64,000 nucleotides of DNA from an uncultured Acidimicrobiia bacterium (lineage in GTDB: Bacteria; Acidobacteriota; Terriglobia; Versatilivoradales; Versatilivoraceae). The number at the start of each line of letters is the position of its first letter. Within the stretch, counting starts at the first letter, position 1. Below are positions 23,703-45,472 of the stretch, in pieces. The translations under genes and the position numbers were made by a program. Under the pieces are notes generated by a model. That model worked only from the letters and a program-made list of their open reading frames with translations, was not told the origin of the DNA and did not search any database. The DNA lies in the NCBI GenBank assembly GCA_963786955.1, contig CAWBAT010000005.1:1024001-1088000 (forward strand), read 5' to 3'.

Positions 23703-25180
23703 CTAAGCGATGATGGCTTTTATGGGACTGGCCGGTTCGACTCCAGTCAATCGCTGATTGAGGCCCAGGTATTTATAGCTGAACTTCTCGTGCTCGATCC
23801 CAAACTGATTTAGAATCGTCGCCTGCAAGTCCCGCACATGGACCGGATTGTTCACGATGTTGTAGGAAAACTCGTCAGTCTCCCCATACACTGTGCCCCC
23901 CTTGATCCCGCCCCCTGCCATCCACAAACTGAAGCAGCGGGGATGATGATCCCGGCCATAGTCCGTCGGTGTTAATTTCCCTTGCGAATAGATCGTTCGA
24001 CCAAACTCCCCTCCCCAAATGACCAGCGTGCTGTCCAGTAATCCGCGCGATTTGAGATCCTGCACTAACCCCCAGCAACCCTGATCGACATCTTTACACT
24101 GACTGGGTAGCACTTCCGGAAGGAAGTTGTGGACGTCCCAGCCTCGATGGTAGAGCTGCACAAAGCGGACGCCCCGTTCTACGAGTCGCCGGCCATCAAG
24201 CAACCGTTCGCAAAGGTTCCGCCTTTGCGGGCATCCTCCCCATAAAGTTCATAAGTGCTTTCAGGTTCTTTGGAAAGATCGGTCAATTCCGGAACAGAGG
24301 TCTGCATCCGGAAGGCCATCTCATACTGCGCAATACGCACTTGCGTCTCCGGATCCCCGATCTTTTCAAGTTCTAGATGGTTGAGTGCTCCGAGTCCGTC
24401 TAGCATCTGCCGTCTGATCTGAGGAGGAACCCCGTCCGGGTTATTGATATAAAGCACTGGATCACCGCCTGACCGAAGCGCCACTCCCGCATATTGCGCC
24501 GAGAGGAATCCGGCACTCCATAACCGGGCCGAAATCGCCTGCACGCCAGCCTTTGGATGAGAATGGGTGGCATTGAGGACGACAAAAGTCGGCAAGTCCT
24601 GGTTCATGCTGCCCAGACCATATGCAATCCAGGCCCCCATGCAGGGCTTCCCCGCGATCATGTTTCCCGTTTGTATAAACGTGATGGCCGGTTCGTGATT
24701 GATCGCTTCGGTGTGGACCGAGCGAATAATGGCCATGTCGTCTACCATCTTCGCCGTGTACGGCAATAGCTCCGAGACCCAAGCTCCACTCTGCCCGTGT
24801 TGCTGGAATTTGAATATGGACGGGGCAATTGGAAATCGACTCTGTCCCGCCGTCATCGTCGTCAGCCGCTGACCCTTGCGAATGGACTCCGGCAAATCCT
24901 TGTCATACCAGTCTTTCATCCCAGGCTTGTAGTCATAAAGATCGAGCTGCGGCGGCGCTCCCACCATATGCAGGTAAATCGCCCGCTTGGCTTTCGGCGC
25001 AAAGTGGGGAAGTCCGGGAACTCCTCCAACCGCTTGCGGCTTTGAAACACTTTCCGCCAGCGCATTGAGCACATTGTCACCCAGTAGGCTCGCCAGCGCT
25101 AAGCTACCCAAGCCCCGGCCGCTGCGCCCAAAAAATTGTCGCCGCGTTTCAACTAATACAGCTTGATCTATAGGATGCAT
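23703..25180 (-). CDS. DUF1501 (sulfatase-like, Tat-type) protein, copy 2 (1-base indel near 24190)
   Basis: TRRQFF Tat-like motif, [32 protein letters not shown] and WGGEFGRT. Confidence 0.9.
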
Positions 25181-26853: not shown

Positions 26854-29800
26854 TTACTTGTTGAAGACTTCGTCCAAATTCATGACCTGGTTTGCCACCA
26901 TGGTCAAAGCGGCAACTTGCGGAACTGCAGCCGTCAAGTCTGCTTTGGACTCCCCAACCGACAACAGCTTCTGGGCATCTTCGGGATGCGAGTCATAATA
27001 AGCCAGAAATTCCTTATAGGCACGCTTGACGATCTCCCGTTCTTTTTCATCGAAAGGACGAGCCAGAAGTCGTGCCGACATAAAATCAATTTCACGGTCT
27101 AAATTACCGTTGGATTCCCGCAGGGCGCGCTGAGCAAGAGCCCGTGCCGCTTCTACAAACTGCGTGTCATTCATGGTCACTAAAGCCTGTAACGGCGTGT
27201 CTGTCCGTTCCCGACGCATCGTGCAAGTCTCCCGCGTCGGCGCATTGAAAATATCCATCGAAGCCGGAGGCGCACTGCGTTTCCAGAAGGTGTACATGCT
27301 CCGTCGATAGAGATCTTCGCCTTTGTCCTGCTTGTAGAAGCGGGTATTGCTTCCTATCATCGCGACGGTTTCCCACACTCCGTCAGGCTGGTAGGGTTTG
27401 ACACTCGGCCCGCCAATCTTTGGCACCAGCAGTCCACTGGCCGCTAAGGCATAGTCCCGGACCATCTCTCGCATCCATTCGGAATCGCGGCCCGCGTGAT
27501 AACAGTCGATTCTCCGGATCCACCTTCAGCTTCTCTTCCGTCGTCACCGCCGATTGCCGGTAGGTCGCCGAGGTCACCATCAACTTGAAAAACTTCTTGA
27601 TGTCCCAGCCCGATTCGCGAAACTCCACCGCCAGCCAGTCCAGCAGTTGCGGATGCGAGGGCGCCTGCCCCTGCGATCCAAAATCTTCCGCCGTCTTCAC
27701 CAATCCCGTCCCAAACAATTCCTGCCAGTACCGATTCACCGTGACCCGCGCCGTCAACGGATTCGACGGATCCACCAGCCACTGCGCTAGCCCTAGACGG
27801 TTCCGCGGGAACGATGCCGGCATCGGCGGCAACGCCGCCGGAACGCTCGGATCTACTTTCTCCCGCATCTGATCGTATTGCCCGCGAAATAGAATATGTG
27901 CCATGGGCTTCGTGTCCGACTTCTCTTCCATGACCAGCGTCACGGCGCTGCGCTCACGAATTTCACGTTTCTCGGCTTTCAACGCTTTGAGCCGGGCAGC
28001 CAGTTCGCGATACTTGGCATCTTCGAGGGTCAAGAAATAAAGATGGAATGCATCGCGTTCGGCCGCACTCCACTGGTCGGGTTGTTTTTCGCGTGCCAAC
28101 TCCATCATGAGCCAAAGCGACGCGAGCTGCCCTTCTTCAACGGAGATCGGACGCGTGAAAATACGAAGATCCGCAATGGCGCCACCTTGAAAGAAGAGCT
28201 TACCATTCCCGCCGACTAGCATTGGGGATTTTGTCCGAATCTCTCCCACGAGCTCAGTCGTTTGGTCGCCGGCCCCTTGGGTTGGGATGGCTCTGCCATT
28301 CAAGTAGAAACTGAGACCCGCCTGTTTTCGACTTCCATCGTAAGATACAGCCACATGATTCCATGTCCCTGGCTTCAATTGTTCTTGAAAACCCGCGACA
28401 ATGCTGACAGTTTTTCCTTCGTCGCCAATGAGTCGAAACGCCACCACGCGGGCCCCAATATCAATTCCCCAACCACGATTCTTGTCATCCGGATCCATCT
28501 GATATACGACTGCAAAATTATCCGACCCGGTCGGCTGGTAAATCCAGAGGGTCACAGAAAAGGGTTTATCAGCAGAAAAATAATCACTATTGGGAAGCTG
28601 CACTTGAGTGTTAGCCCCAAATTTGAGGGCCTTACTCCCGGGAATCCCTCCTTCACCGATAGTAATTCCTTCCGGAAGAGATACCGCACTCGTCTGCCCG
28701 TTCATTCTGAGATTAGCCTGTTCTCCGAAAGAGAAAGCGAGCAATTCCGCCGACGCTTCGAAAGGGGACTTCAACTGACGGTGGGCATTTGAACTGAGCC
28801 ATTGATCAAAAGCGCTGTCCGAGGAGATCCGTGCCTGCTGCATCTGGCTCTGCACTGTTAATTCTTCTTTGTTGAGCAGGTCCCAACGCACCTGGTCTTT
28901 TTCCCCGGGTACTACGATCGCCGGAGGTGTGTTAGGCGCGTTCCCATCCATGGCGTATTGTGTAGTATTCCGGAAGAAGGCCGTCATGGAATAGAAATCC
29001 TTCTGCGAGATCGGATCAAACTTGTGGTCATGACAGGTCGCGCACCCGACCGTTAATCCCAACCACACGGCCCCCGTCGTGTCCGCCCGGTCCTTCGCAT
29101 AAATCGCCTCCACCTCTTCTGCAATGACTCCCCCTTCGTTCGTCGTCACATTACAGCGCTGAAATCCCGACGCGATCTGCTGTTCCCTTGTCCGGTTGGG
29201 CAGCAAATCCCCCGCCAACTGCTCGATCGTAAACCGGTCAAACGGAAGATTCCGATTGTAGGCGGCGATCACCCAATCCCGATACGGCCACATCTCCCGA
29301 TAGTTGTCCACATGGATCCCGTGCGTGTCCGCATACCGCGCTGCATCCAGCCAATACCGCCCTCGATGCTCTCCCCAGCGCTCCGACGCCATCAGCCGAT
29401 CCACGAGCTTCTCGTAGGCCCCCTTCGTATTGTCTTTCACAAACGCTTCCACCTCTGCCGGCTCCGGCGGTAATCCCGTCAAATCCAACGACAGTCGCCG
29501 AATCAGCGTCCGCCGATCCGCCTCCGGCGCGGGTTTCAACCCGGCCGCCTCTAGTTTCGCCAGAATAAACTGATCCATCGGATTCCGTACCCAAGCCTTT
29601 TCTTTGACCGCCGGCAACTCCGGACGCACCGGCGCTGCGAACGACCAAAGCTCTTTCCACCCTGCTCCTTGCTCAATCCACTTCTTCAAGAGCTCGATCT
29701 GTTGCGGCGTCAGCGACTTGTGCGAAGATTCTGGCGGCATCTTTCGAGCCGGATCTTCCGCCGAAATCCGCTGGTATAGCAGACTCTCCTGGGGTTTCCC

Positions 29801-30058
29801 CGCCACGATCACCGTCCCGCTGTCCCGCACTTCATACGCCCCTTCTTTTGTGTCTAATCGCAAATCCATCATGCGCGTGTTCTTGTCCGGCCCGTGGCAC
29901 TGAAAACAGTTATCCGACAGGATCGGTCTTATGACCCGCTGAAAATCAACTCCTCCTGCCCCTGCCTTTACCACCGGTTGCTGAGCCATTTTGATCGAGC
30001 AAAAAAAGCAGGCCAGGAACAAAAAACAAAACCCGAGAGAACGAAGTACTGTTTTCAT
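26854..30058 (-). CDS. Planctomycete-type cytochrome c / DUF1549 / LamG / DUF1553 protein (indel near 27470)
   Basis: CFQCH and CATCH heme motifs, [10 protein letters not shown], LamG-like [25 protein letters not shown], and TPLQAL..MND. Confidence 0.9.
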
Positions 30059-30461
30059 AGAATGCCTCACCTTGAAAACCTTAGACTGATCAAGACTTAT
30101 CCTCGCCATAGGTAATATATGATTTTACTAAATCGTTTCCCTCGTTGCAAGCCTATGGATAAATTTCGAAAGATTTGGGGGAATTCAATTTTTTGCCGGA
30201 TTGGATGGCTCCGTGGAGGAACTCCATGGGCAATTAGGATACCCACCAAGCAACGCCTTGAACGAAAAGCACCCCGGAAATCTAAAAAGCCATCGTGTAG
30301 GACCTTTTTCCGGTTATAATCTGTGCACTCCTTGGTTTTATCTGATGACTGCATCTGGCCTCAGGTTGCATTTCATTTAAAGAGCCAGAACCAAGAAGAA
30401 TCATTGCATAATGAAAATAAACGGTCTTAAAAAAGACCGTTTGAGAGAAGGGGCTATTCCA

Positions 30462-32924: not shown

Positions 32925-33098
32925 CTAAGAACCCGATTCTAATGTTGATTTCGCTCTGAAAAAGACGTTGCTCGCGGCCTATCCCAAAGTAGGAAGCGCC
33001 GTAATCGCAGCTAGGGCCAAGAGTATAAGCAATAAGGCATACTCCACAAGGTCTTGGCCTTCCTCGTAATGAATTAGTTTCTCGAGTAATCTTTTCAG
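32925..33098 (-). pseudogene. Flp/Fap type IVb pilin with internal stop
   Basis: EEGQDLVEYALLLILLALAAITALPTLG*AASNVF...: Flp G/xxxxEY motif, in-frame TAG at 32979-32981, and no canonical start codon. Confidence 0.8.
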
Positions 33099-33339
33099 GA
33101 CGTTTCTCTTCCCTCGAAAAACACTTTCGAAGAAAAGAGGTCCATTACAACACCTCTGCAAGCGTGTATGAGGTCATTTCAGAATCAATTGAAGTTCGGA
33201 TAACTCTGCCTAATTGGGCATATTCTACAGAAGAAAAACCTCTCAAAGCATACTCCTCTGTAGCAATTTCTTCGATTGGAAAATTGCATCCGGCCTCAAG
33301 GGTCTGATAGGGATCGAGTGGAATAATGGGGGAGAAATT

Positions 33340-33365
33340 TGGTACGCCCGGAAGGACTCGAACCT
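33340..33365 (-). repeat. att direct repeat (copy of tRNA-Arg 3' end)
   Basis: TGGTACGCCCGGAAGGACTCGAACCT is identical over 26 bp to 45396-45421. Confidence 0.95.
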
Positions 33366-36300
33366 CAAGCGGCACCAATACATTGGATAACTGCCAGTTC
33401 GGTGTCTAACGCGGTTTTTTGTGCGTATTTTTGGAGCGCATGATAAGTCGAAGGGAGGAGCGGCACCCCTTCCCGCAAGTTCCCATCCCGCGCTCGCATT
33501 TCCGTCTCACCGGGGATCAGGATCTCCTCCACGTTTTCAGCCCGCTCTCCCGCCTTCGTTTGCTCAATCATATGGTCGACTCGCGTTGTGAATTCGGCTA
33601 TCGGCATGAACAGCTCCGGATCGATCGCCATGAAAAAGTGACCAATATCCGGTGGCTGCATCTTCTGTCGCGCGTGCTCTCGGCGATGGTCCCAGCCAAA
33701 GCCCGCTCCGGTCAACACGCCTGCCAGCACCTCCATGACAAGAGTGAGACCATACCCTTTGTGACCTCCAATGGGCACACCTAGACCGGCAGCCAGATCT
33801 GCCGGATCCGTCGAGGGATGCCCAAAGCGGTCGAGAATCCAGCCTGGAGGCAGCGGTTTCCCCTCGGCGAGTTGCAGGCCGATCTTTCCCCGCGGTGCAA
33901 CACTCATTGCAATATCAAGCAGAATCGGGTGGTAGCGTCTTGCGGGGATGCCCACGCCAAGCGGATTGTTCCCGAACGTCGGGGTGATACCGCCGGTGGG
34001 CGCCAGGATCGCCGGGCCGTTGGTGGTGCACAAGCCAATCAGCCCCTCCCGTGCGGCTAGCCAAGGGTAATGGCCGGCCGCACCGAGGTGATTGGAGCGA
34101 TGCACACCCACTATCCCCACACCCCTCTCACGTGCCATCCGGATCGCCAGCTTCATTGCCACGACAGCAACCCACTGCCCTGGACCGTTGTCTCCATCGA
34201 CGTGTGCGCTGACTTCCGAATTGCGCTCGATCCGAATATGGGGTCGGGGATTTATTATGCCGGAGGCAATCCGTCGGGCATAACGCGGAATAGCGACCAT
34301 ATTGTGCGTCGGTTGGCCGCGCAGGCTGGCCTCGAGCTGCACTTCGGTAACAATTGCCGCTCCTTCCGGCACCAGGCCAGCTCGCTCCAGTGCCTCGCGG
34401 CCATATGAGCGCAGGCTCTCTGCAGTGACACGGAGTGTGGGTTGGATCTCAACCGTCATCGCTGGGTCTCTCCGTTGGACCCGTTCTATAGCCACTCTAT
34501 GTTCAGCCAGGCCGGCAGAGGATAGAAAAGGATTTGCGACAGCCACTCGTGCCAGCTCTGAAATGGTCTGGTGCTGAAAAACCAGCTTGGGGCTGAGTTG
34601 CAGTCCAGCCTGATTCGCGCGGTTGACCATCTGGATGCTGAGGTTGGAATCCCCACCCATGTCGAAGAAGTTGTCGTCCAGGCTCACGCGATCCAGTCCT
34701 AAGACCTGTGCCCAGACCGACGTCAATACCTCCTCGGCAGGGGTATGTGCTGCGACGTGCCCCGCTTCCAGTTCCAGTAGTGCACCCCCCGGACTGAGGG
34801 AGCCGGCCCCGTCTCGGTTGTCCGCACTCGGGGCGATAGGTTCTTGGGGTAGAGTGTAGAGTCCCGCCCGGTCCACTTTCCCATTGGGCGTTCGCGGCAG
34901 TGCCACCAATTTCACGATCAGCGACGGTACCATGTACTCGGGGAGCTTCTGTTTCAGATACTCACGAAGCTCACGGGCCATGGGTTCCTGTTGGAACGGT
35001 CGCAAGTTTTCAGGAGGGCTCGCCTGAACACCTGAATTCAACACCACATACGCGACGAGGCGTTTCTCCCCCGTCGTGTCCCGTTGCGTCACCACTGCGC
35101 ATTCCCGCACCCCGGGATGCTGCCCCATGACCGCCTCGATCTCCCCCGGTTCGATGCGGTAACCGCGGAGCTTCATCTGATAGTCGACACGACCCGAGAA
35201 CTCGATGCCTCCGTCTGGCAAGTAGCGCGTCACATCCCCGGTCCGGTAAAGACGTTCCCCGGGAATGGGGCTGAACGGATCGGGCACGAATTTTTCCGCA
35301 GTCAGCTCGGGCTGGTTGAGATAGCCCCGCCCTACCCCGGCACCGCCGATATACAGCTCGCCCCAAACGCCGACGGGTACGGGTTGCCCTGAGGGGTCTA
35401 ACACGTACACTCGCGTATTGGGGATCGGACGACCTATCGGGACGACCTTCACGGATTCGCCATCGTGAGAAGGAATTGGATAGACGGTCACGATGCCGGC
35501 CGTCTCTGTCTGCCCGAACATGTTGATCAACCGGGCGCCATGCCCGAACGCTACGCCCCACTCCCTGGGCACATCCGAATATAGCGGTTCGCTAGCGGAC
35601 AGGATCAGCCGCAGTTCGTTCCTCAGCAGATCGGCTCGGGAATTGGGTTCCAAGGTTGCCAGCACCTGATTGCAGTTCCGCCAGTACGACGGAACAATGT
35701 CAATGATTGACACTCCCTGCTGCCGGATAACTTCGAATAGAGCTTGTGGATCCCGGATCTGCTCGCTCTTGGCAACAACGACAGTTGCACCGCATGAGAG
35801 CGGGACTGCGAACTGCCGGACAGAGGAAGAAAACGCAACGGACGCCGTATGGAGATAGCAATCGTCAGCCTTGATCTCTAATGCCGCGTGCATCGCGTGG
35901 ATATAATGGGACAGGTTAGCATGCGTGATCATGACACCCTTTGGCTTCCCCGTTGAACCAGAGGTATAGATCACGTACGCCAGGTTCGCCGCCGTTGCGC
36001 CACTCACTGGGTTCTGTTCACACTCTGTGGCACTGATTTCCGATTCGGATTCCAGGCACACCACCGCCGGGATGTTGGATTCTTGATTTTCGACTCTGAA
36101 TAGCTGCTGACCGGTGGCGCGATTCGAAATCCCCATTGCCGTACCCAAAATCGGAAGCAACCGCTCCTCCGTAACGAGGACAGGTAGCCGGGCATCTTCC
36201 TGCATAAAGGCGAGGCGCTCCGCCGGATACCCCGGGTCTAGGGGCACGTAAGCGCCTCCGGCCTTCATGACACCCAGCAGGGCGGCTATCATCCCCACGG

Positions 36301-39300
36301 ACCGAGTCAGGAAAATCCCCACCGGTGTCTCCGGCCTCACGCCCATTCTCTGCAGGCGCCAGGCCAATTGATTCGCTCGCCTGTTTAGCTCGCTATAAGT
36401 GAGCTGTTCCTCTCCACACCGCACCGCGGGGGCATCAGGGGTCTGCTGCACTTGCTCCTCGAAGAGGTGATGGAAACAGCGGTGGAAATACGGCAGTTCG
36501 GTTTGATTCCACGTCACCAACAGTTGGTGCCGTTCGGCGTCACTCAGCAGCGGCAACTCGGAGAGAGGGGAATTCGGGATTCGCCACAATTCCTTCCAGC
36601 AGAGTTTGGAAATTCCCGGCCATCCGTGCAATTCGGACCCCATCGAACAAGTCGGCGTTATACTGCCACGTCGCCATCAACCCCTGCTTGGTTTCCGATA
36701 GATACAGAGTCAAGTCGAACTTGGCTGTCCTACTATTCAACTCCATCGGGCTAACAGTCAGACCCAACAAAGGCTCGATAGAGGCTCCACCTGTTTCAGC
36801 CTCAAACCCGAGCCCGGGCGGTGCTGGGTGGCTATCAGTGTGAATCCTCCTGCCTGGAACGTTCTGAAAGGCAAACATTACTTGGAAAAGTGGATTGTGG
36901 CGATGATCTCGCGCTGGTTGCAGCTCCTCGATCAACATCTCAAATGGCAGGTCTTGATGCGCATATGCGTTCATGGCCGTGCTCGCACCCGCCCCAGAAC
37001 CTCACAGAATGTCGGATTCCCCGACAGATTCGCGTGCATCACCAGCGTGTTGGCAAAGAAACCAATTAAGTCCTCCGTTTCGACGAGAGTCCGATTGGCG
37101 ATCGGTGTGCCCACCGCGAGATCATCTTGTCCCGTGTAGCGGTGCAGCAAGGTCTGGAATGCCGCCAGCAGTGTCATGTAGAGCGTGGCTCTCTCCCGTT
37201 GGCTCAACGCCTTCAACCCTTCGGTCAGCTGGGCGGATATCTCCATTTGGTAACTGGAGCCCCGGAATGACTGGTGGGCAGGACGAGGTCGGTCGGTAGG
37301 CAGATCGAGCACCGGGGGGATCTTTTCGAACTGCCTCTTCCAGTATGCAAGTTGGGTCTCCAGTGCCTTCCCCTGCAACCATTTTCGCTGCCAGACAGCG
37401 AAATCACGATACTGGATCTGCAGTTCCGGCAGCGGTGATGGTCGGCCCGCCGAAAACGCTGCGTAGAGCGTCTCCAATTCCCGATTAAGTACTCTCGTGG
37501 ACCAGCCATCGGAAACGATGTGGTGCATGGTCAGGAGCAGCATGTGCTCTTCTACATCCAACCGTAGGAGTGTGACACGAAAGAGCGGTCCGTGGAGCAG
37601 ATGGAATGGACGGACGATCTCTTCGGAGGCCAGACGCACGGCCTCAGCCTGGCGGTCGGATACGGGAAGCCTCGTCAGATTCACCACCGGCAGCCGCAGG
37701 GGTTGCACCGGGGAAATGACCTGGATAGGGTGCCCGCCGACAGTGCGGAAGGTGGTGCGGAGAGCTTCGTGGCGGCGAAGGATCTCGTTGATGCTCTGCT
37801 CCAGCACCTCCTCGCGGAGCCTCCCCGTGAGACGCAGTGCGATATGCATATTATAGGCGGGGTTCCCAGGCTCAATCTGGTCGAGCAACCACAGTCGCTG
37901 CTGTGCAAATGACAGCACGCAATGCTCAGTCGCACTCCCCCGCGGAATACTCGGGCTTTCTGTGCGTAGATAAGTCGTCTTTCCATCAGCCACCCGCATC
38001 AGTAGGTAACGGGTAACAAGCTCTGCCAGCTCCGCGACGGTTGGCCTTTCAAACAGGGTTTGCATGGGCAGCTCGACCTGGAAGTCACGGTGCAACCGCG
38101 AAAATACCTGGGCTGCCTTTAGCGAGTCGCCACCTGACTGGAAGAAATTGTCATGGATGCCGAGCTGATCAATACCCAACACGCTAGCCCAGATCTCTGA
38201 CAGTCGCTCTTCTATGGACGTGCGGGGTGCAGTGAAATCGGCCAGCTTCTTGCCTGGCGCCACCAGATCCAGTTTCTCTGCCAATCCCATGCGCTGCAGT
38301 TTGCCAGTTGGCCCCTTTGGGATTTCATCCATGATCACAATTTGCTGCGGCACCTTGAAATGGGCGAGGCGCGCCGAGGCAAACTGACGGATCTCCTTGA
38401 TCAGGGGTTCCGTTGCTCGGAGATTTAGGTGTTGGGATGAGTTCACCTGAACACCTGACCTGAGAACGATCGCGACCGCGACATCCTCACCAAGGGTGGC
38501 ATGAGGGACCGGGAACGTAACAGCTTGTGCGATCACCGGGTGATCCAGCAGTACTTCATCCACCTCTCGCGGCGAGATTTTCTCCCCTCCGCGGTTGATG
38601 ATCTCCTTGAGACGCCCGGTGATGAAAAGGTAACCCTCCGCATCCAGGTAACCCCTATCGCCCGTACGGAACCACCCCCGGACAAAAGCGCTGCTATTGG
38701 CTTCGGGGTTGTTTTCATAAGCCAGCATGACGTTTGTGCCACGGATTACGACCTCGCCGTTTTCCCCTGGCGGCAACAGATTGCCGATCTCATCCATAAT
38801 CGCGACGTCCGGCCCCGCGGCCAGACCCACCGAACCTGGCTTCCGCCTGCTCGGCGGCAGCTGGCTGCTTGCAATCTGTGGAGCAGCCTCGGTCATCCCG
38901 TACGCCTCGATGAAGGGGATATGAAACACGCGTTCCATCTCCGTCATCAACTTCCTCGGCATCGGCGCGGAGGCCGAGCGGATGAATCGCAGCGAAGAGC
39001 GCGCGCGGATGCCCGGATGGTGAATAGCGTTCTCCAGGATCTCCTGGTGAATCGTGGGTGCCGCCGTGTACCACGTAGGGCGAAACGCCTCCATCCATTC
39101 AAAGAACCGCGGAGCGGAAAAGCCATCCGTGCAAATGACGCTCGCACCCGCCGCAATCGAAGCAAAAATCGTGCTCAGGCCATGAATGTGAAATAACGGC
39201 ATCACATTCAGACAACGATCGCTGTCGACTAACTCGACTGCAGCGCGAATATTGTTAGCGGAGGCGCAGATGTTACGGTGTGTCAGGGGTACCAGCTTCG

Positions 39301-39886
39301 GTAGTGCAGCCGATCCGGAAGTGTGAAGCGCCAACGCGACATCCTCCGGCTGTGCGAACCCCGCCTTCATGTTTTCAAACCTTAGGATTTCCGAGTGTTC
39401 CGCCCTGGGCACTTGAACACCCTGCTTCAGCGTGAAGAGACCTGCCTCTTCTTCTTCCAATGGTGTCAGTTCAATGATCGGGATGCCACGAGCTCGGGCA
39501 ACAGCGACTGCTGGCGATGAGCTGCCCGATTGCACCAGCAGCGCCCGGGCGCGGAGATCTGCAAGATGGAAATCGAATTCGCCGGCACGGTAGGCAGGAT
39601 TGAGGGGTGCGCAAGTGGCGCCGGCAGCGATGGTGATAAACGCTACAGCCATCTCGGGACCTTCGGGAAGCACCAATGCCACACGGTCATTCCTCCCGAC
39701 GCCGAGCGAGTTGAGCGCCTCCACGACCGTCACCAGCTGGCGGCACAAACGGCCGTAAGTAAGAGGCCTGCGTCCCGGGGCGAGAATCGCTACGGCATCG
39801 GGGTTCCGTTCGGCCTGCTCTTGGACCAGTTGACGCAGACAATAGTGCCGGGTGTGATCCGTGAATTGGATAGGATCAGCATTCAT
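33365..39886 (-). CDS. NRPS: acyl-CoA-ligase-like A - T - C - A - T - Ldh_2 dehydrogenase (one gene split by two indels near 36970 and 36600)
   Basis: MPLFHIHGL/LRFIRSAS/EAYGMTE ligase; GGDSL carrier; HHIVSDG condensation domain continuing AYAHQDLPFE and AKFDLTL in the next frame; YTSGSTGKPKG A domain; GGDSN carrier; Ldh_2 motifs SNHLG, GNNP, GGHKGYGL and IPGE. Confidence 0.88.
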
Positions 39887-39926
39887 GGTTCGTTCTCTCG
39901 TTTGTACTGCTGAAGCGTTTCACAGA

Positions 39927-42900
39927 TTACTCCTTCGATTTCCGTTCCAGCGGTCGGGGTAAAGAGACGCAGATGTCTACCAGGGCGGACCGGCCGCGGT
40001 GGACTTCTTGAAGCGCTTCCCGGAGTACCGACTGGAGTTTCGCCGGATCGTCCACGGTCCTGGCCCACAATCCCATCGCTTCCGCCACTTTGGAATACAG
40101 AGGCGGCTTCGGCAGATCGCACGCCGGGTAGTTGCCTGTCTTCCTTGCGTAGCCCTCGGGCGCTATGGCCAGAATTGCTTCGGTGGTGGCAGCATAAGCC
40201 TGATTATTGAAGATCACCGTCAAGAAAGGACTGCGGTGTTGCTCGGCCGCCCAGTACGTAACAATGGGAGAGCCGAATACCCAGGAGCCATCTCCTACCG
40301 TGCAAATAATCGTTTTAGAGGGGGAGGCAAGTTTGGCACCCAAGGCGGCTCCAAGGCCCCAACCAAGGCCGGACCCGAGGCTCTGGTAGTAGGTTCCGGG
40401 TTTATCTGAATTCAGATAATGCCAAAGGACCGGATTGTTACTGACAGCCTCGCTGACGATCACCGTGTCGTCATCCACAATTTCGTTCAAGCAGTAGGCA
40501 GCCCATTCTGGTGCGATCGGCTGCCGCACCGCCAAATCGAGAGCTCTCTGCCGCCACCCTGCCTTTTGCACCTCGTGCTCCGCGGTCAGAACATGGCGTC
40601 TTGTCTCAATCCGTGGCCGATCTGTGGGGCTCAGCCTGCGCTCGACCTCCTCCGCCAAGGCTGCCATGGCTTGCGAAGAATCGGCCTGAATGGAAAGGTC
40701 TACCGGGAATCCCCAGATCGGGATATCCCGTTTGAGGGGGTCAATGTCCACGTGGATAATTCGGCATTGAGAGGGTGGTTGTCCTTGCGCAGGGACCCAT
40801 GGAACATCGTGGTCGACAATCAGAACGCAATCAGCATGCTGCAAGTAGTGAGCGGCCGAAAATCCGAGATGAAGCGGGTGTCCCGTAGGAAAATTCATTC
40901 GGTGACGCAACTCCACTACTGGGGCTGCAAGCTTCTCGGCAAGTCTAACCAGAGAGGCCACAGCCTTGGGATTGCGGCCCGCATAGGCCACAAGAATTAA
41001 AGGTCTTTCCGCCTCGATCAGCCACTGCGCTGCCTGAGCAAGGCTCTCAGGGTCAGCCGCCAGTGTTGAAATCACTGGCGTGCGCCGGGGTCCCACAATC
41101 GGAGTCTCCAACTTCTCCAAGAGCACTTCCTTCGGGAGGGTCAAATATACCGGGCCCGCCGGCTCCGTGCCGGCTAACTGGAATGCACGCTGCATCGCCA
41201 CGTGAAGGTTTTCCCGGCGGGTCAGCTCGTAATGCCACTTGACGTAATTCTGCACAATGCCTGCCTGGTTAAACTGCTCTTGTATCCAGTCGATAGAGCG
41301 ATTGCGCCCACCCTCGACGTTGCCATCGACGGTGTAGGGGGATCTCCCCGCACAGATAACCACTCCGGCGCGACCACGCTGTGCGTTGTGTAGATTCGCA
41401 CCGATGTTCTGGGTGCCCACGTCAACGTGAACCAGGACTACCTGAGGCCTTCCGGTAATCATGAAGTAGCCGTGCGCAGCTGCCATAGCCACAGACTCAT
41501 GAAGACAGAGGATCAGCTCAGGTGCCCGGCGTCCCTGGGCTTTAAACTTGGCTATGGATTCCTGGATCGGCGCAATGTCGCTACCCGGGTTGATAAAGAT
41601 GTAATCGACGGCGTAGGCGTTGAGCAGCTCAATATAACCGTCGGAGACGTTGTCAATCAGCAGACTCTGTGGTTCTGCCTTGTGCAACCGTTGAGACTCA
41701 CGAGGCACGACATGTGGGAACACCTTCGCCGGTGCCTGAATTTGCGCGCGTTCGAGGCAAGCCTTCAACTGTTGGGCCAGGACCTGAACGTTTGGTTTCA
41801 CCAAGATTAAGCCGGAGTCATCGCCGGGCACATTGTAAATCTCCAGGCCTCCGGCAGCCAGCCGACTCCAGTGCAGCCTGCGATCCTCTTCGGGAGCAAC
41901 GTTACGGCCCTCGGCCTGAAAAAGGACAACGCGCCCTGGGTAGGTGTGCGGCTTGTAATGGTGAACCGCAGCTAGATTAGCCTGCCTAACAACCCCCCCA
42001 TAGAACACGTTGCGGTCACCCCTGAAAAGGTCGCGCTGGGCGACCATCTGCTTGAGTGTCTTAAGCCGCTCAATCAGGTATTCGAATCGCTGCCGGCCAC
42101 GGAGCCTCGCAAGCGTATCGCCGTAAAGCCGTATCCGGCTGACCGTGAGATTGAGGGCCGCCAGCACGCGCAGAGCGGGCCGGAACCATAGCTTAGAGGT
42201 CACCACCGGCGGCCTCGGCTCAAGGAGAGCTAAGAGGCCGACCTTTTGTCCTGCTGAGTGCAGCTGTTGTGCCATCTCATACGCGACAACAGCGCCCATG
42301 CACCCACCGGCGAGATAGTAGGGACCCTCGGGTTGCAGCTCACGGATTTCCTCCAGATAGGTCGCCGCGATCTCCTCAATGCTTGTCAGCGGCTTCTCCG
42401 TTCCACTGAGTCCGCGCGATTGCAGGCCATAGAAGGGCTGCTCCGGACCCAGAAGCCGCGCGAGGTCGTTAAAGCCGAGCACGTTACCCCCGACGCCCGG
42501 TACAGCAAATAGGGGTGGTCGGCTTCCCGCCGGCTGAATCGAAACCAGGGAGCGCCATGACTGTGACTCACTGCCCTTGCCAATGACTGCGGCGAGCCCT
42601 TCGATGGTGGGCGCCCGGAACAGCGTCGCGAGCGGTAGCCTGATCCGTAAACATTCTTCCAGCCGTGCGAACATCACGGCGGCGAGCAGTGAGTGGCCCC
42701 CGAGGTCGAAGAAGTTTTCTCGAGTCCCAACAGGATTAACCATGAGAATCTCTTCCCAAATCTTAACCAGTTGTCGCTCGACCTCATTTTGGGGTTGGGT
42801 GAATGTGGATGTCCGATCCCTGCTCCTGTCCGGCGGAGGAAGCGCTCGGCGGTCTATCTTACCGTTGGGCGTTAAAGGCAGTGCTTCCAAGAATACAAAC

Positions 42901-44426
42901 GCAGAGGGAATCATATAATCAGGCAACTTCTGCTGGAGAAAAGCGCGCAGTTCGCCGCCTGTCGGAGCCAGTTCTTGTGACGGAACAATATAGGCAATTA
43001 ATTGTTTATCATTTGGTACGTTGTCCAGCACTACAACCACTGCTTCTCGAACAATTGGATGTTGACGGAGTACGGCCTCAATCTCATTCAGCTCAACACG
43101 GAAGCCCCGGATCTTCACCTGATGATCAGCGCGGCCCAGAAACTCGAAACTGCCATCTGACAAGAATCGCCCACGGTCGCCGGTTCGATAAATCCGCTGC
43201 CCGGGAACTTCCGGGTCAGGCTTGAAGACTGGGGCCGTTTCTTCCGGGCGGTGCCAATACCCTTCGGCAATATAGCGGCTCTTGACGACTAATTCACCTA
43301 TCTCCCCCCTGGCGACAGGCTGACCTGATTCGTCAACGAGCTCGAGGCATTTGTCTGCTACCGGTCGACCAGCCGACAGGGCTCCAAGGTCTTTCACCAT
43401 ATTCGCATCGATGCGAGCTACGCATAGTAGGCCGGTCTCGGTCGTGGAAAAGCGATGCATCAGCACGCAGGAACTTCCGAAATGCAGCTTCCATTTTTCT
43501 ATATCGGTACGTAGGACCACATCTCCAGCCAGGGCCACCGACCTTACCGAGGGAAACAAATTCTCCCCCTCCAGAGTGGAAAGGAACCTCCGAAACAGCA
43601 GCACGGGGGGATGCAGCAGGGTGATTTGCTCCTCTTCGAGCCATTCCCTGAAGGCCGTCAGACCTTCTGATGCAAAATCAAACACACAGAGAGTGGCACC
43701 GTTAAGTAGGGCTCCAAACATGTCCGCTTCCGACGCCGAAAAACTGCAGTGGGTCAATAGAGACTGCCGATCAGCCGGAGTGATGGCATCATGTTGTGCG
43801 AAGAGCCATACACGGTGCAGAACCGCCCGATGGCTCTTCACTACCCCCTTCGGTTGGCCGGTCGTCCCAGAGGTATAGAAGATTGTTGACGGGTCATGCG
43901 GCCTTATCTCAATCTGCGGGCTATCCTCGGGAAACCCAGCATCGATCTCATCAAGCATCAAAAGGGAAGTGGGCCCGGCCATTAACTCGCGGGCGCGGGA
44001 TTCAAACGCGGCAGTCGTCAGAATCAAATCCGGGGCCACGTCTCGCACGATTTCCGCCTGCCGCTTGGCTGGCATTCTAGGGTGAATGGCTAAATATGTC
44101 TTTCCAGCCTTCAGCACCGCAAGCGTGGCAATCACCATTTCCGGCGAATGATCTAATAAATAGGGAACACATCCGACACCGGGATGTGTGCGCTCCTTGA
44201 TGGCGTGCGCAATCCGATTTACTTGTCTGTTTAGATCCTGGTAGGTCCACTGCCGGCCAGCGCCGGTGAGAGCGATGTGATTTGGAAAGCGGCAGACCAC
44301 TTGTTCGAAACGAGCCGGTACGGTCTGCTCAATTTCCGCCCTTGAAAAAGGGAGACTCGGGGGTGGAGCGGCTTCACCCGTGTTAGTCGTCGTCTCCACA
44401 AGCCTCAACATGAGCAGATTCCCCAA
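39927..44426 (-). CDS. NRPS-like protein: A - T - TE - thiamine-diphosphate enzyme fusion
   Basis: YTSGTTGQPKG, YRTGD and PLTPNGKIDR (A); FFDLGGHSL (T); GPYYLAGGCMG (TE); CLHESVA and GDGS-x-NN (ThDP), all in one uninterrupted 1499-aa ORF. Confidence 0.92.
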   Translation of the reverse strand: MGNLLMLRLVETTTNTGEAAPPPSLPFSRAEIEQTVPARFEQVVCRFPNHIALTGAGRQWTYQDLNRQVNRIAHAIKERTHPGVGCVPYLLDHSPEMVIATLAVLKAGKTYLAIHPRMPAKRQAEIVRDVAPDLILTTAAFESRARELMAGPTSLLMLDEIDAGFPEDSPQIEIRPHDPSTIFYTSGTTGQPKGVVKSHRAVLHRVWLFAQHDAITPADRQSLLTHCSFSASEADMFGALLNGATLCVFDFASEGLTAFREWLEEEQITLLHPPVLLFRRFLSTLEGENLFPSVRSVALAGDVVLRTDIEKWKLHFGSSCVLMHRFSTTETGLLCVARIDANMVKDLGALSAGRPVADKCLELVDESGQPVARGEIGELVVKSRYIAEGYWHRPEETAPVFKPDPEVPGQRIYRTGDRGRFLSDGSFEFLGRADHQVKIRGFRVELNEIEAVLRQHPIVREAVVVVLDNVPNDKQLIAYIVPSQELAPTGGELRAFLQQKLPDYMIPSAFVFLEALPLTPNGKIDRRALPPPDRSRDRTSTFTQPQNEVERQLVKIWEEILMVNPVGTRENFFDLGGHSLLAAVMFARLEECLRIRLPLATLFRAPTIEGLAAVIGKGSESQSWRSLVSIQPAGSRPPLFAVPGVGGNVLGFNDLARLLGPEQPFYGLQSRGLSGTEKPLTSIEEIAATYLEEIRELQPEGPYYLAGGCMGAVVAYEMAQQLHSAGQKVGLLALLEPRPPVVTSKLWFRPALRVLAALNLTVSRIRLYGDTLARLRGRQRFEYLIERLKTLKQMVAQRDLFRGDRNVFYGGVVRQANLAAVHHYKPHTYPGRVVLFQAEGRNVAPEEDRRLHWSRLAAGGLEIYNVPGDDSGLILVKPNVQVLAQQLKACLERAQIQAPAKVFPHVVPRESQRLHKAEPQSLLIDNVSDGYIELLNAYAVDYIFINPGSDIAPIQESIAKFKAQGRRAPELILCLHESVAMAAAHGYFMITGRPQVVLVHVDVGTQNIGANLHNAQRGRAGVVICAGRSPYTVDGNVEGGRNRSIDWIQEQFNQAGIVQNYVKWHYELTRRENLHVAMQRAFQLAGTEPAGPVYLTLPKEVLLEKLETPIVGPRRTPVISTLAADPESLAQAAQWLIEAERPLILVAYAGRNPKAVASLVRLAEKLAAPVVELRHRMNFPTGHPLHLGFSAAHYLQHADCVLIVDHDVPWVPAQGQPPSQCRIIHVDIDPLKRDIPIWGFPVDLSIQADSSQAMAALAEEVERRLSPTDRPRIETRRHVLTAEHEVQKAGWRQRALDLAVRQPIAPEWAAYCLNEIVDDDTVIVSEAVSNNPVLWHYLNSDKPGTYYQSLGSGLGWGLGAALGAKLASPSKTIICTVGDGSWVFGSPIVTYWAAEQHRSPFLTVIFNNQAYAATTEAILAIAPEGYARKTGNYPACDLPKPPLYSKVAEAMGLWARTVDDPAKLQSVLREALQEVHRGRSALVDICVSLPRPLERKSKE

Positions 44427-45039
44427 GAACTAACGATGCAACCATCCCAGCTGCAATTTATTACGGCGAAGAATGACATCCATCTCCAATCAATCCGCTA
44501 CCTCTGCCCTTGCTCCTTCTCGGCATACTGCATTTGGCGTGCCTAATCCGGCAATCAGGGCTCCTTCAGGCTTCCCTGCGTGGCGCGGTTCAGCCCATGT
44601 GGGGGAATGCAAAAGGCAGGCAACCCCCCTGTTTTCTTGCAAATCTCCAACCAAATCAAAATGATACTTGCTAATATAGTCGGCGGCGGGTGCAACTACC
44701 AATTTCTCCTATGAATAAAAGCGTAGCTTCCTTATCCCATATTTTTTCCGCTCTTGAGAAAGTGGAAAACCTTTTCCATTAATGTCCATCCAAATGTGGT
44801 AGAGATTATAAGCAACATGGTTTGGACTATTTGCCACCAATTATTTGCCGATTTTTTGGGGCGCAAACTCGTGGCTGCACGACGGCAACCTGGAGTTAAC
44901 TAAGCGGAATCAGTCCAACCACTGAATACCGACATAAGTCGGCTTTTTCTTATTGTAAGTAGTTGTCTAATTCAATCGGCCCTATATGCATAATCAAGGT
45001 AAACGAACTGCTGCGGTGTTGTTCCGCGACTCTGTTCGG

Positions 45040-45330
45040 CTCGACTAAGGAAACCGTTACCTATGTGATGGGCAGCCACGTCTTGCCGAGGTGTGTCGAG
45101 ACACGCCTCTACAATCCGACGCGATTCAATCTCCATTCCCATTTGAACTAGCTCGCGAAGAAATATTCAGAATCGGCCGTTCAGAAGGCACGAACCTGAT
45201 TGAACGGCGCATTCGAGGAAGCTATTGATCAGGACTTCTCGTTTAAGAATCCTGCCAGGAAACTGGCAGTGTGGGTCACCCGCAAGAGCTGCAAACGTTA
45301 CCTTAGTGCCAAGGAAATCCACAAACCTGA
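45040..45330 (+). pseudogene. Tyrosine integrase remnant (core-binding region only)
   Basis: One frame reads STKETVTYVMGSHVLP...TRFNLHSHLN*LAKKYSESAVQKART*LNGAFEEAIDQDFSFKNPARKL...RKSCKRYLSAKEI. It has two in-frame stops, no catalytic domain, and lies adjacent to the tRNA 3' end. Confidence 0.75.
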
Positions 45331-45395
45331 TCGCCCGGAGACTGATTGTTTGTGCTCTAAGACCTGGGAAGTTATTCGCTTAACGATTGAAAGGA

Positions 45396-45472
<77 letters not shown>

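Follow-up and report, generated by a model that had tools for sequence, protein, structure and literature searches.

What might two synthetase genes make when each ends in a metabolic-enzyme fold, and are they still able to make it? The question is raised by a locus in a 64,000-nucleotide (nt) stretch of DNA (here, the window; contig CAWBAT010000005.1 of assembly GCA_963786955.1) from an uncultured bacterium recorded as Acidimicrobiia and placed by GTDB in the Acidobacteriota. There, an island of ~12 kb is integrated at tRNA-Arg(TCT), and its sole cargo is a pair of genes of the nonribosomal peptide synthetase (NRPS) type. Gene 1 encodes adenylation (A3), carrier (T3), thioesterase-fold (TE), and thiamine diphosphate (ThDP)-dependent enzyme domains, and gene 2 encodes an acyl ligase, a carrier (T1), a condensation (C) domain, a second adenylation domain (A2), a second carrier (T2), and a dehydrogenase domain of the Ldh_2 family. 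The pair forms an NRPS-like line that combines an atypical TE with two enzyme folds whose fusion is unprecedented, and it belongs to a large uncharacterized family. Its product is likely to be a non-peptide assembled from non-amino acids. The fuller reading, to which we give an even chance, is that of a functional two-protein, three-carrier line, intact save for two probable assembly errors, that makes a small non-peptide from three carboxylic or 2-oxo acids.

The domain order of both genes (Table 1), which the initial annotation had read from the letters alone, was recovered in full by Pfam: A-T-TE-ThDP in one clean open reading frame (ORF) in gene 1 and ligase-T-C-A-T-Ldh_2 in gene 2, with two breaks but with A-T-Ldh_2 joined in one clean ORF. 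The matches in gene 1 are AMP-binding at residues 40-391 with AMP-binding_C, PP-binding at 552-615, Thioesterase at 638-775, and TPP_enzyme_N/_M/_C at 926-1485, so that residues 40-890 form an A-T-TE tridomain with no C domain; the database copy of this protein (P0005) begins at an ATG at 44411 and has 1494 amino acids (aa). Over both genes, AMP-binding followed by AMP-binding_C is matched three times (E values of 1e-61 to 1e-94), with the motifs NGKIDR, GKVDR, and TGKLQR. The hallmarks of an NRPS are thus present in the form of A domains with the A10 Lys, three GGxS carriers, and a C domain with HHxxxDG, the only C domain of the genome; the exception is Asp235. Because A2 and A3 both have Ser at the Asp235 position, the line is called NRPS-like, and a non-peptide product is expected.

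TABLE 1 Positions, in window coordinates, of the island, its two genes, and their domains
Feature	Position	Strand	Basis or detail
Left-hand attachment (att) repeat, 26/26 copy of the tRNA-Arg 3' end	33340-33365		
Gene 2, ligase-T1-C-A2-T2-Ldh_2	33365-39886	-	Three ORFs, two 1-nt frameshifts
Gene 2 piece 3, 1092 aa	33365-36643	-	AMP-binding, PP-binding 639-699, Ldh_2 739-1071
Ldh_2 domain, profile 1-333 of 333	33431-34429	-	371.4 bits, cut-off 38.8
Carrier domain T2 (GGDS)	34547-34729	-	Pfam, motif
Adenylation domain A2	34877-36463	-	Pfam, family alignment
Gene 2 piece 2, 144 aa	36540-36974	-	Condensation profile 322-439
C domain, HHIVSDG intact (residues 788-794 of piece 1)	36570-37927	-	Broken by frameshift 1
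Frameshift 2, C-A linker	36573/36574		Window has one A extra (minus strand GAA; relatives GA)
Gene 2 piece 1, 971 aa	36971-39886	-	AMP-binding, PP-binding, Condensation profile 3-318 of 456
Frameshift 1	36979/36980		One A (minus strand) missing relative to L089 and L025
Carrier domain T1 (GGDS)	38015-38209	-	Pfam, motif
AAE3/Pcs60-like acyl ligase domain	38300-39823	-	
Gene 1, A3-T3-TE-ThDP, 1499 aa from TTG	39927-44426	-	Single ORF, Pfam
ThDP-enzyme domain, N/M/C subdomains	39972-41651	-	Pfam, NF006203
Thioesterase-fold domain	41757-42515	-	Cys709 in GGCMG (codon 42300-42302)
Carrier domain T3 (GGHS)	42582-42773	-	Pfam, motif
Adenylation domain A3	42858-44309	-	Pfam; alignment to LgrA
Island remainder, non-coding, gene 1 to tRNA	44427-45395		Short ORFs only
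Right-hand att repeat, 3' 26 nt of tRNA-Arg	45396-45421		Repeat search (family D3)
tRNA-Arg(TCT), integration target	45396-45472	-	ARAGORN

Both fusions recur far beyond the window. A search with the T2-Ldh_2 region among longer proteins returned, among the matches listed, 100 of 120 with the combination Condensation, AMP-binding, PP-binding, and Ldh_2; these proteins span 1955-2415 aa, the range of intact gene 2 relatives, are 51-77% identical over the query region, and include RefSeq proteins of several cultured Mesorhizobium species. A near-length search added 47 further clusters with A/T and Ldh_2, many of them on short contigs. The corresponding search with TE-ThDP gave, among 120 matches listed, 27 A-T-TE-ThDP proteins (1392-1565 aa), 21 A-T-ThDP proteins, and 11 hydrolase-ThDP proteins without A or T. 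When one genome per species was kept, fused gene 2 was present in 38 of 79 loci from at least seven phyla; by their record titles, the carriers belong to Gemmatimonadota, Acidobacteriota, Planctomycetota, Verrucomicrobiota, Obscuribacteraceae, Sumerlaeia, Cryomorphaceae, and Pseudomonadota, the last with Mesorhizobium, Steroidobacteraceae, Haliea, Burkholderiales, and others. The recurrence of the fusions in independent assemblies excludes chimeric assembly, the objection that the initial annotation had itself raised. Its proposal of a new biosynthetic system holds in that no characterized example was found, but the gene pair is not a one-off: it represents one version of a gene family that is widespread and reaches into cultured Mesorhizobium. 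In agreement with its further claim that no characterized NRPS carries either terminal fusion, literature searches aimed at such fusions and related chemistry, which did not extend to supplements, MIBiG, or antiSMASH, returned no account of an NRPS to which a ThDP or Ldh_2 domain is fused. The names given to family proteins in the databases are generic ("amino acid adenylation domain-containing protein" and "thiamine pyrophosphate-requiring protein"). The ThDP variants come so far from metagenome assemblies only; in the ESM Atlas, gene 1 retrieved A-T-TE clusters only and no ThDP fusion. A tblastn search of a plasmid collection with T2-Ldh_2 matched 113 records, all at <60% identity, with no fused form among the 12 matches listed, which are annotated as free-standing Ldh family oxidoreductases.

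The constant part of the family is gene 2 together with an A domain like that of gene 1 (motifs CSF[SA][AS]SE and HRFS[STI]TE), and the partner gene that carries this A domain comes in several forms. It is A-T-TE in nine loci, including those of Mesorhizobium sp. STM 4661 and M. mediterraneum (plain A-T-TE partners were seen by domain scan in L037, L041, L027, and L028), and A-T-ThDP in L007, L008, L009, L011, and L017/L089 and, more distantly, in L038; the full A-T-TE-ThDP form was found in the window and in L025. Beyond the partner gene, the neighborhoods of 39 family loci hold no broadly conserved neighbor. Between gene 2 and the A-T-ThDP gene of two gammaproteobacterial loci lies a gene for a TauD/TfdA-family dioxygenase (L009, 13072-14064; L011, 13123-14142), possibly a tailoring step of a variant pathway. 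A phosphopantetheinyl transferase (PPTase) gene stands directly upstream in L037. The genome of the window has ACPS-family frames of 130 aa and 286 aa elsewhere; the longer one, of Sfp size and adjoining another A domain on contig C8, is a candidate PPTase for priming the carriers in trans. Contrary to the first proposal, the line is thus not wholly self-contained, since a PPTase has to be supplied in trans.

The case for unusual substrates starts with the adenylation domains, for which the motif-fixed positions, not the full 10-residue code, are reported. The A4 motif of A2 reads FSSSVRQ, with Ser272 at the Asp235 position and Arg276 both invariant in 37 of 37 sequences, and its A5 motif reads NMFGQTE, with Gln378 in place of Pro in at least 90% of the sequences. 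A3 has FSASEAD as its A4 motif (Ser at the Asp235 position) and HRFSTTE as its A5 motif (Gly-Pro replaced by Ser-Thr), and it retains the A10 Lys. Since A2 and A3 both lack Asp235 and the A5 proline, their substrates are probably not amino acids, which fits the small carboxylic or oxo acids suggested at the outset. In the available parts of the reports on such systems, loss of Asp235 is a stated hallmark of keto-acid modules (PMC13643306), and the keto-acid A domain of StsA has Ile for Asp235 and Met for the A5 proline (PMC11253843). With the modules of cereulide (CesA/StsA), cryptophycin (CrpD-M2), and Dol15D-M2, arranged as C-A(k)/KAL-KR-T, where KR is a ketoreductase, gene 2 shares, as far as the accessible descriptions go, a C-A-T unit without Asp235 and the A5 proline and its linkage on one chain to an oxidoreductase of the NAD(P)H type, from which a 2-hydroxyacyl thioester would be expected. 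Unlike them, gene 2 has no KR (Pfam found neither a KR nor any other member of the short-chain dehydrogenase/reductase [SDR] family in either gene); the unrelated Ldh_2 fold follows the carrier instead of standing between A and T, and the A domain is of the normal NRPS type, with Ser at position 235, and not of the KAL clade.

The first unit of gene 2 also points to a small acid. Its ligase aligns over the full length with the solved oxalyl-CoA synthetases (6qjz, 2e-113; 5ie0, 6.5e-110; 8aff, 1e-99), and the next solved ANL family, that of FadD13, reaches an E value of only 6e-54. The equivalents of AtAAE3 Ser289 and His214-x-His216 are kept, and Cys288 is replaced by Ala; Ser289 and His319 are the two residues described as oxalate-specific in the accessible part of PMC8905533. 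In contrast to the oxalyl-CoA synthetases (AtAAE3, 5ie0; LsOCS, 6qjz; yeast Pcs60, 8aff), the acceptor of the gene 2 ligase would be a fused carrier and not CoA. A literature search for oxalyl units in nonribosomal carrier systems returned nothing relevant by title and abstract. A likeness is offered by FUM10, FUM14, and FUM7 of fumonisin biosynthesis, where, according to the part of PMC3705289 that is available, an acyl-CoA-ligase-type A (FUM10) and a T-C protein that forms a C-O bond (FUM14) attach a small polycarboxylic acid, with a reductase involved, an arrangement that gene 2 resembles. The FUM system differs in being fungal, in having its parts on separate proteins, and in using a polyketide alcohol as the acceptor. 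FUM10 itself we take, from its CDD naming, to be kin to the AAE3/Pcs60 clade.

Taken together, these likenesses suggest the following route. The AAE3/Pcs60-like ligase would adenylate a small, probably dicarboxylic, oxalate-like acid and load it onto T1, and A2, with the invariant Ser and Arg in its pocket, would place a 2-oxo or 2-hydroxy acid on T2. With NAD(P)H, the Ldh_2 domain would then reduce the T2-tethered 2-oxoacyl group in cis, a role parallel to that of the embedded KR of cereulide- and cryptophycin-type modules, and the C domain would esterify the new hydroxyl with the T1 acyl group in the manner of FUM14. On gene 1, A3 would place a third non-amino acid on T3, the benzoylformate-decarboxylase-like ThDP domain would decarboxylate a 2-oxo acid and join it through a C-C bond to a partner bound to a carrier or to the Cys, and the product would be relayed or released by the Cys-type TE-fold domain.

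Several points weigh against this scheme, in which we infer all substrates and chemical steps by analogy. The His319 equivalent of the ligase is Pro, a residue at least 90% conserved in the gene family, which makes oxalate itself doubtful as its substrate. The C domain is closest to ordinary peptide-forming elongation domains (Txo1/Txo2 and TycC), with nothing that marks it for ester formation. One C domain for three carriers leaves the joining of the T3-bound unit unexplained. The substrates on which Ldh_2 enzymes are known to act are free 2-oxo acids and cyclic imines rather than thioesters. In the 77-sequence alignment of the TE subfamily, His is not conserved at 90% in any column, and the TE-fold domain might not be a hydrolase. 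The partner gene has nothing called after A in L012, L014, L015, and L018 (the M. loti type), that is, in four of six Mesorhizobium loci, and in L015 it is a 557-aa A-only protein by Pfam; because some partners are A-only, ThDP and TE are accessories, not essential to the core chemistry. Finally, the Ser at position 235 of A2 and A3 is not hydrophobic, as this residue is in the keto-acid A domains reported in the accessible text of PMC11253843 and PMC13643306.

The role of the Ldh_2 domain has a competing explanation. Among solved enzymes, the domain comes closest to malate dehydrogenases of archaea and Thermus and to L-sulfolactate dehydrogenase (E values of 1e-66 to 1e-58). It scores under every NCBIfam equivalog cut-off (sulfolactate dehydrogenase, 241 versus 500; ureidoglycolate dehydrogenase likewise), and hence no named Ldh_2 subfamily applies. 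In-line reduction of the A2 load is a tentative assignment, with less than an even chance of being correct. Alternatively, the domain might not be an in-line ketoreductase at all and might instead reduce an imine or 2-oxo acid of the released or cyclized product, or serve in off-loading in the TE-less variants. The extreme C terminus of gene 2 is the usual place of release domains, in the four loci listed above neither TE nor ThDP was called in the vicinity of gene 2, and the Ldh_2 family includes delta1-piperideine-2-carboxylate reductase (PDB 1wtj/2cwf); enzymes of the DpkA type act as cyclic-imine reductases and in this way yield N-alkyl amino acids. That imine reductase, however, matches the domain at an E value of 1.3e-34, far behind the malate and sulfolactate dehydrogenases. 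Moreover, the T2-Ldh_2 fusion was encountered in no other gene family (the 100 and 47 clusters among the matches listed) and, in the 37 aligned sequences, always stands behind an A domain without Asp235, which fits action on the A2 load. An off-line role is on balance unlikely, and in-line reduction is retained as the working assignment.

The possible origin of the Ldh_2 domain is a separate matter. Free-standing Ldh_2 genes of Chloroflexota (L040, L043-L049, and L051) are 56-68% identical to the fused domain and share the motif E[AS]SLRGQxTH with it, whereas other free-standing Ldh_2 genes are only 35-42% identical; the Chloroflexota genes may mark the source of the fused domain. These nine closest free-standing genes have no conserved neighbor and give no hint of a substrate. 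Other Ldh_2 fusions were also encountered: P0440 and P0441 are methyltransferase-Ldh_2 (609 aa) and ATP-grasp-Ldh_2 (770 aa) proteins, 32-34% identical.

The ThDP domain scores 659.6 bits against NF006203 (cut-off, 456), a family (PRK08327, "thiamine pyrophosphate-requiring protein") whose name specifies no substrate. The cofactor motif of ThDP enzymes is GDG-X(24-27)-NN; here it reads GDG-X26-NN, with GDG at residues 1378-1380 and NN at 1407-1408, and the cofactor Glu, in LHESV, aligns to Glu47 of benzoylformate decarboxylase. Benzoylformate decarboxylases are the closest relatives (E value of 3.5e-41); the equivalents of their Ser26, Glu47, and His70 are kept, and the region of His281 is gapped in the alignment. 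The three-subdomain fold is shared with these enzymes and with NF006203, but in gene 1 it is fused to A-T(-TE). A search of 1.84 billion representatives returned fused ThDP domains as the top matches, at 50% identity or more. The company these domains keep is variable. For example, the ThDP domain of the window shares 76-81% identity with its counterparts in P0021 and P0027; the A domains of these two proteins reach only 38-41%, and their TE is of the Ser type. It also shares up to 80% identity with the ThDP domains of TE-less proteins, in which the T domain reaches only 29-41%. One type of ThDP domain thus stands behind three or more different front ends that contain a carrier, which amounts to cassette exchange and which we take as evidence that the domain works with the carrier. 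Chemistry on carrier-bound intermediates is nonetheless a speculative assignment, with well under an even chance of being correct.

The competing view is that the ThDP domain is a fused precursor supply that turns a free 2-oxo acid into an aldehyde or acyloin without contact with carrier-bound intermediates; this is improbable, for although the nearest non-fused relatives, the next matches in the search, are free-standing enzymes of 550-620 aa (31-44% identity), the benzoylformate decarboxylase catalytic equivalents are retained, many family members have no ThDP domain, and a separate, distant ThDP gene lies beside gene 2 in L016 (27%) and L054 (33%), the domain always directly follows T or T-TE, is joined to at least three different front ends, and takes the position of the release domain in the TE-less forms.

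The thioesterase-fold domain of gene 1 departs from the usual pattern at two sites: it has a Cys in the nucleophile position and PGDDSG where TEs usually carry GxH. Both features belong to a subfamily, in which 77 of 82 homologues have a Cys nucleophile and the usual His site reads PGD[DN]SG. The initial annotation had likened gene 1 to the A-T-TE enzymes RalA, TdiA, and AtrA, a type characterized by the activation of aryl-pyruvates and the self-condensation of two such units. The likeness lies in the domain order, with no C domain and a non-amino-acid-like A domain, and it fails for the TE, which is not of the Ser-His-Asp type but has a Cys nucleophile and no conserved His; gene 1 differs further in the ThDP domain fused behind the TE and in standing always beside a C-domain synthetase. 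A catalytic Cys in place of Ser is shared with the TE of ObiF1, which forms the beta-lactone of obafluorin, but ObiF1 has a Cys1146-His1284-Asp1254 triad, according to the part of PMC6668435 that is accessible, whereas the subfamily of the gene 1 TE has D/N-S-G at the His site. The same subfamily (GxCMG nucleophile motif, PGD[DN]SG) also ends ~50 clusters of ~1390-aa C-A-T-TE proteins (P0063-P0124), many of which carry a TubC_N docking domain. Gene 1 seems to have acquired its T-TE cassette from this Cys-type subfamily by a swap.

The two genes lie between direct repeats of the tRNA end, the left-hand one of which overlaps, with its last base, the stop codon of gene 2 (33365-33367). The G+C content is 0.57-0.60 within the island and ~0.50 outside it. 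Of the longer ORFs in the remainder between gene 1 and the tRNA, 10 were compared with Pfam, and none gave a match with an E value of <0.1. With the remainder holding short ORFs without a Pfam match, gene 1 and gene 2 are the only cargo, and the ORF and Pfam scan bears out the earlier statement that no tailoring, transporter, regulator, or PPTase gene is present in the island. A tRNA with a direct repeat, a deviating composition, and variability of the site all mark a tRNA-integrated island; an integrase was not detected in the remainder by Pfam. Variability is seen in a genome of the same genus (G002), where the flanks of the tRNA-Arg(TCT) site are ~21.4 kb apart (G002:C18:114129-135549) with a 45-nt repeat of the tRNA end. 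Because this genome holds a different insert there, the site is an integration hot spot.

A related cargo is present elsewhere in the same genome. This copy (L089; G002:C2, 3502-19784) adjoins tRNA-Leu(CAG), is 80-85% identical to the window cargo at the nt level, and is bounded by 57-nt direct repeats 16.2 kb apart. Besides gene 2, its island holds an A-T-ThDP gene without the T-TE cassette and an additional ~3.9-kb C-A module, and the segment 44427-44832 of the window is conserved in it at 80% nt identity. Its remainder has no ORF of 150 aa or more, and no integrase was seen in it. A 31-nt motif (TTTGTGACATGGATTGTGAC...) is repeated near both of its ends. The copy is full of stops and short frames, which is consistent with a noisy assembly.

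The two breaks in gene 2 were located by alignment with L089 and with the gemmatimonadotal locus L025, and each proved to be a one-base difference in the length of an A run. Public metagenome contigs were compared over 36300-37200 in runs that contained at most 0.35 of the sampled words. At frameshift 1, a 151-nt contig (run X2, depth 2) that is otherwise identical to the window carries the missing base, and the restored reading ...RVRATAMNAYAHQ... agrees with the family consensus. At frameshift 2, no identical contig spans 36553-36594; in a diverged contig, 103 letters correspond to 101 of the window, which was not counted as evidence. Breaks of this kind also divide ordinary host genes: the PSCyt1/PSCyt2/PSD1 gene (26854-30109) is split by a frameshift at 27383-27474, the DUF1501 gene (23703-25180) is probably split near 24179-24203, and a second Ldh_2 gene (G000:C4:40862-41849) is also frameshift-split. 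These splits indicate indel errors across the 9-contig assembly. Given that both differences are of a single A, that a contig is in frame at the first site, and that host genes are similarly split, both breaks are probably assembly errors.

The gene pair was also compared with its relatives for signs of decay. Of the 387 near-invariant columns of gene 2, conserved to at least 95% among 29 relatives, the window copy differs at 6 (rank 9 of 30); for gene 1, the figure is 22 of 563 (rank 18 of 22). Neither gene contains an in-frame stop, and the sequences give no sign of relaxed selection. The remaining explanation, that the pair is dead cargo, with real frameshift lesions in a decaying island that has lost its integrase and from which nothing is made, is improbable: it can draw on the presence of two frameshifts, on an island without an integrase or any other gene, on the lack of an identical contig to contradict frameshift 2, and on the many stops of the G002 copy, but it is opposed by the in-frame contig at frameshift 1, the single-A nature of both lesions, the similar splits in host genes, the absence of in-frame stops, and deviations at conserved columns that stay within the range of intact relatives. 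The possibility raised in the initial annotation that the frameshifts are inactivating lesions is thus countered directly for frameshift 1, while frameshift 2 is without an identical contig.

If the roles proposed for them are true, a ThDP decarboxylase/carboligase and an Ldh_2 oxidoreductase would join the NRPS assembly-line toolbox, and a TE-fold domain that works without the usual histidine would be the third addition. The strongest form of this reading takes the ThDP domain as a new carrier-dependent C-C-forming or release domain, the His-less Cys "TE" as an acyl relay, and Ldh_2 as a non-SDR in-line 2-ketoacyl reductase, within a mobile pathway to new oxo- and hydroxy-acid conjugates; as a whole, it is rather unlikely. 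If true, this two-gene pathway would be mobile and distributed over numerous phyla of soil and sediment. Members of the family are frequent among bacteria of soil, sediment, and wetland and travel on small tRNA-targeted islands, and the product may therefore matter ecologically, be it as a chelator, a signal, or an antimetabolite. As cultured Mesorhizobium species carry an intact form of gene 2, the core chemistry is directly testable.

Outside the island, the neighboring host genes are of the planctomycete type (PSCyt1/2, PSD1, and DUF1501). Just beyond the left-hand border lies a small ORF (32979-33161, minus strand) ending in ...EEGQDLVEYALLLILLALAAITALPTLG, which by eye presumably resembles a Flp-type pilin. 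The overlapping segment 32926-33089 (~160 nt) matches several places in three genomes (G001, G002, and G004) at 70-75% identity, and judged from these matches, the ORF is a multi-copy small gene.

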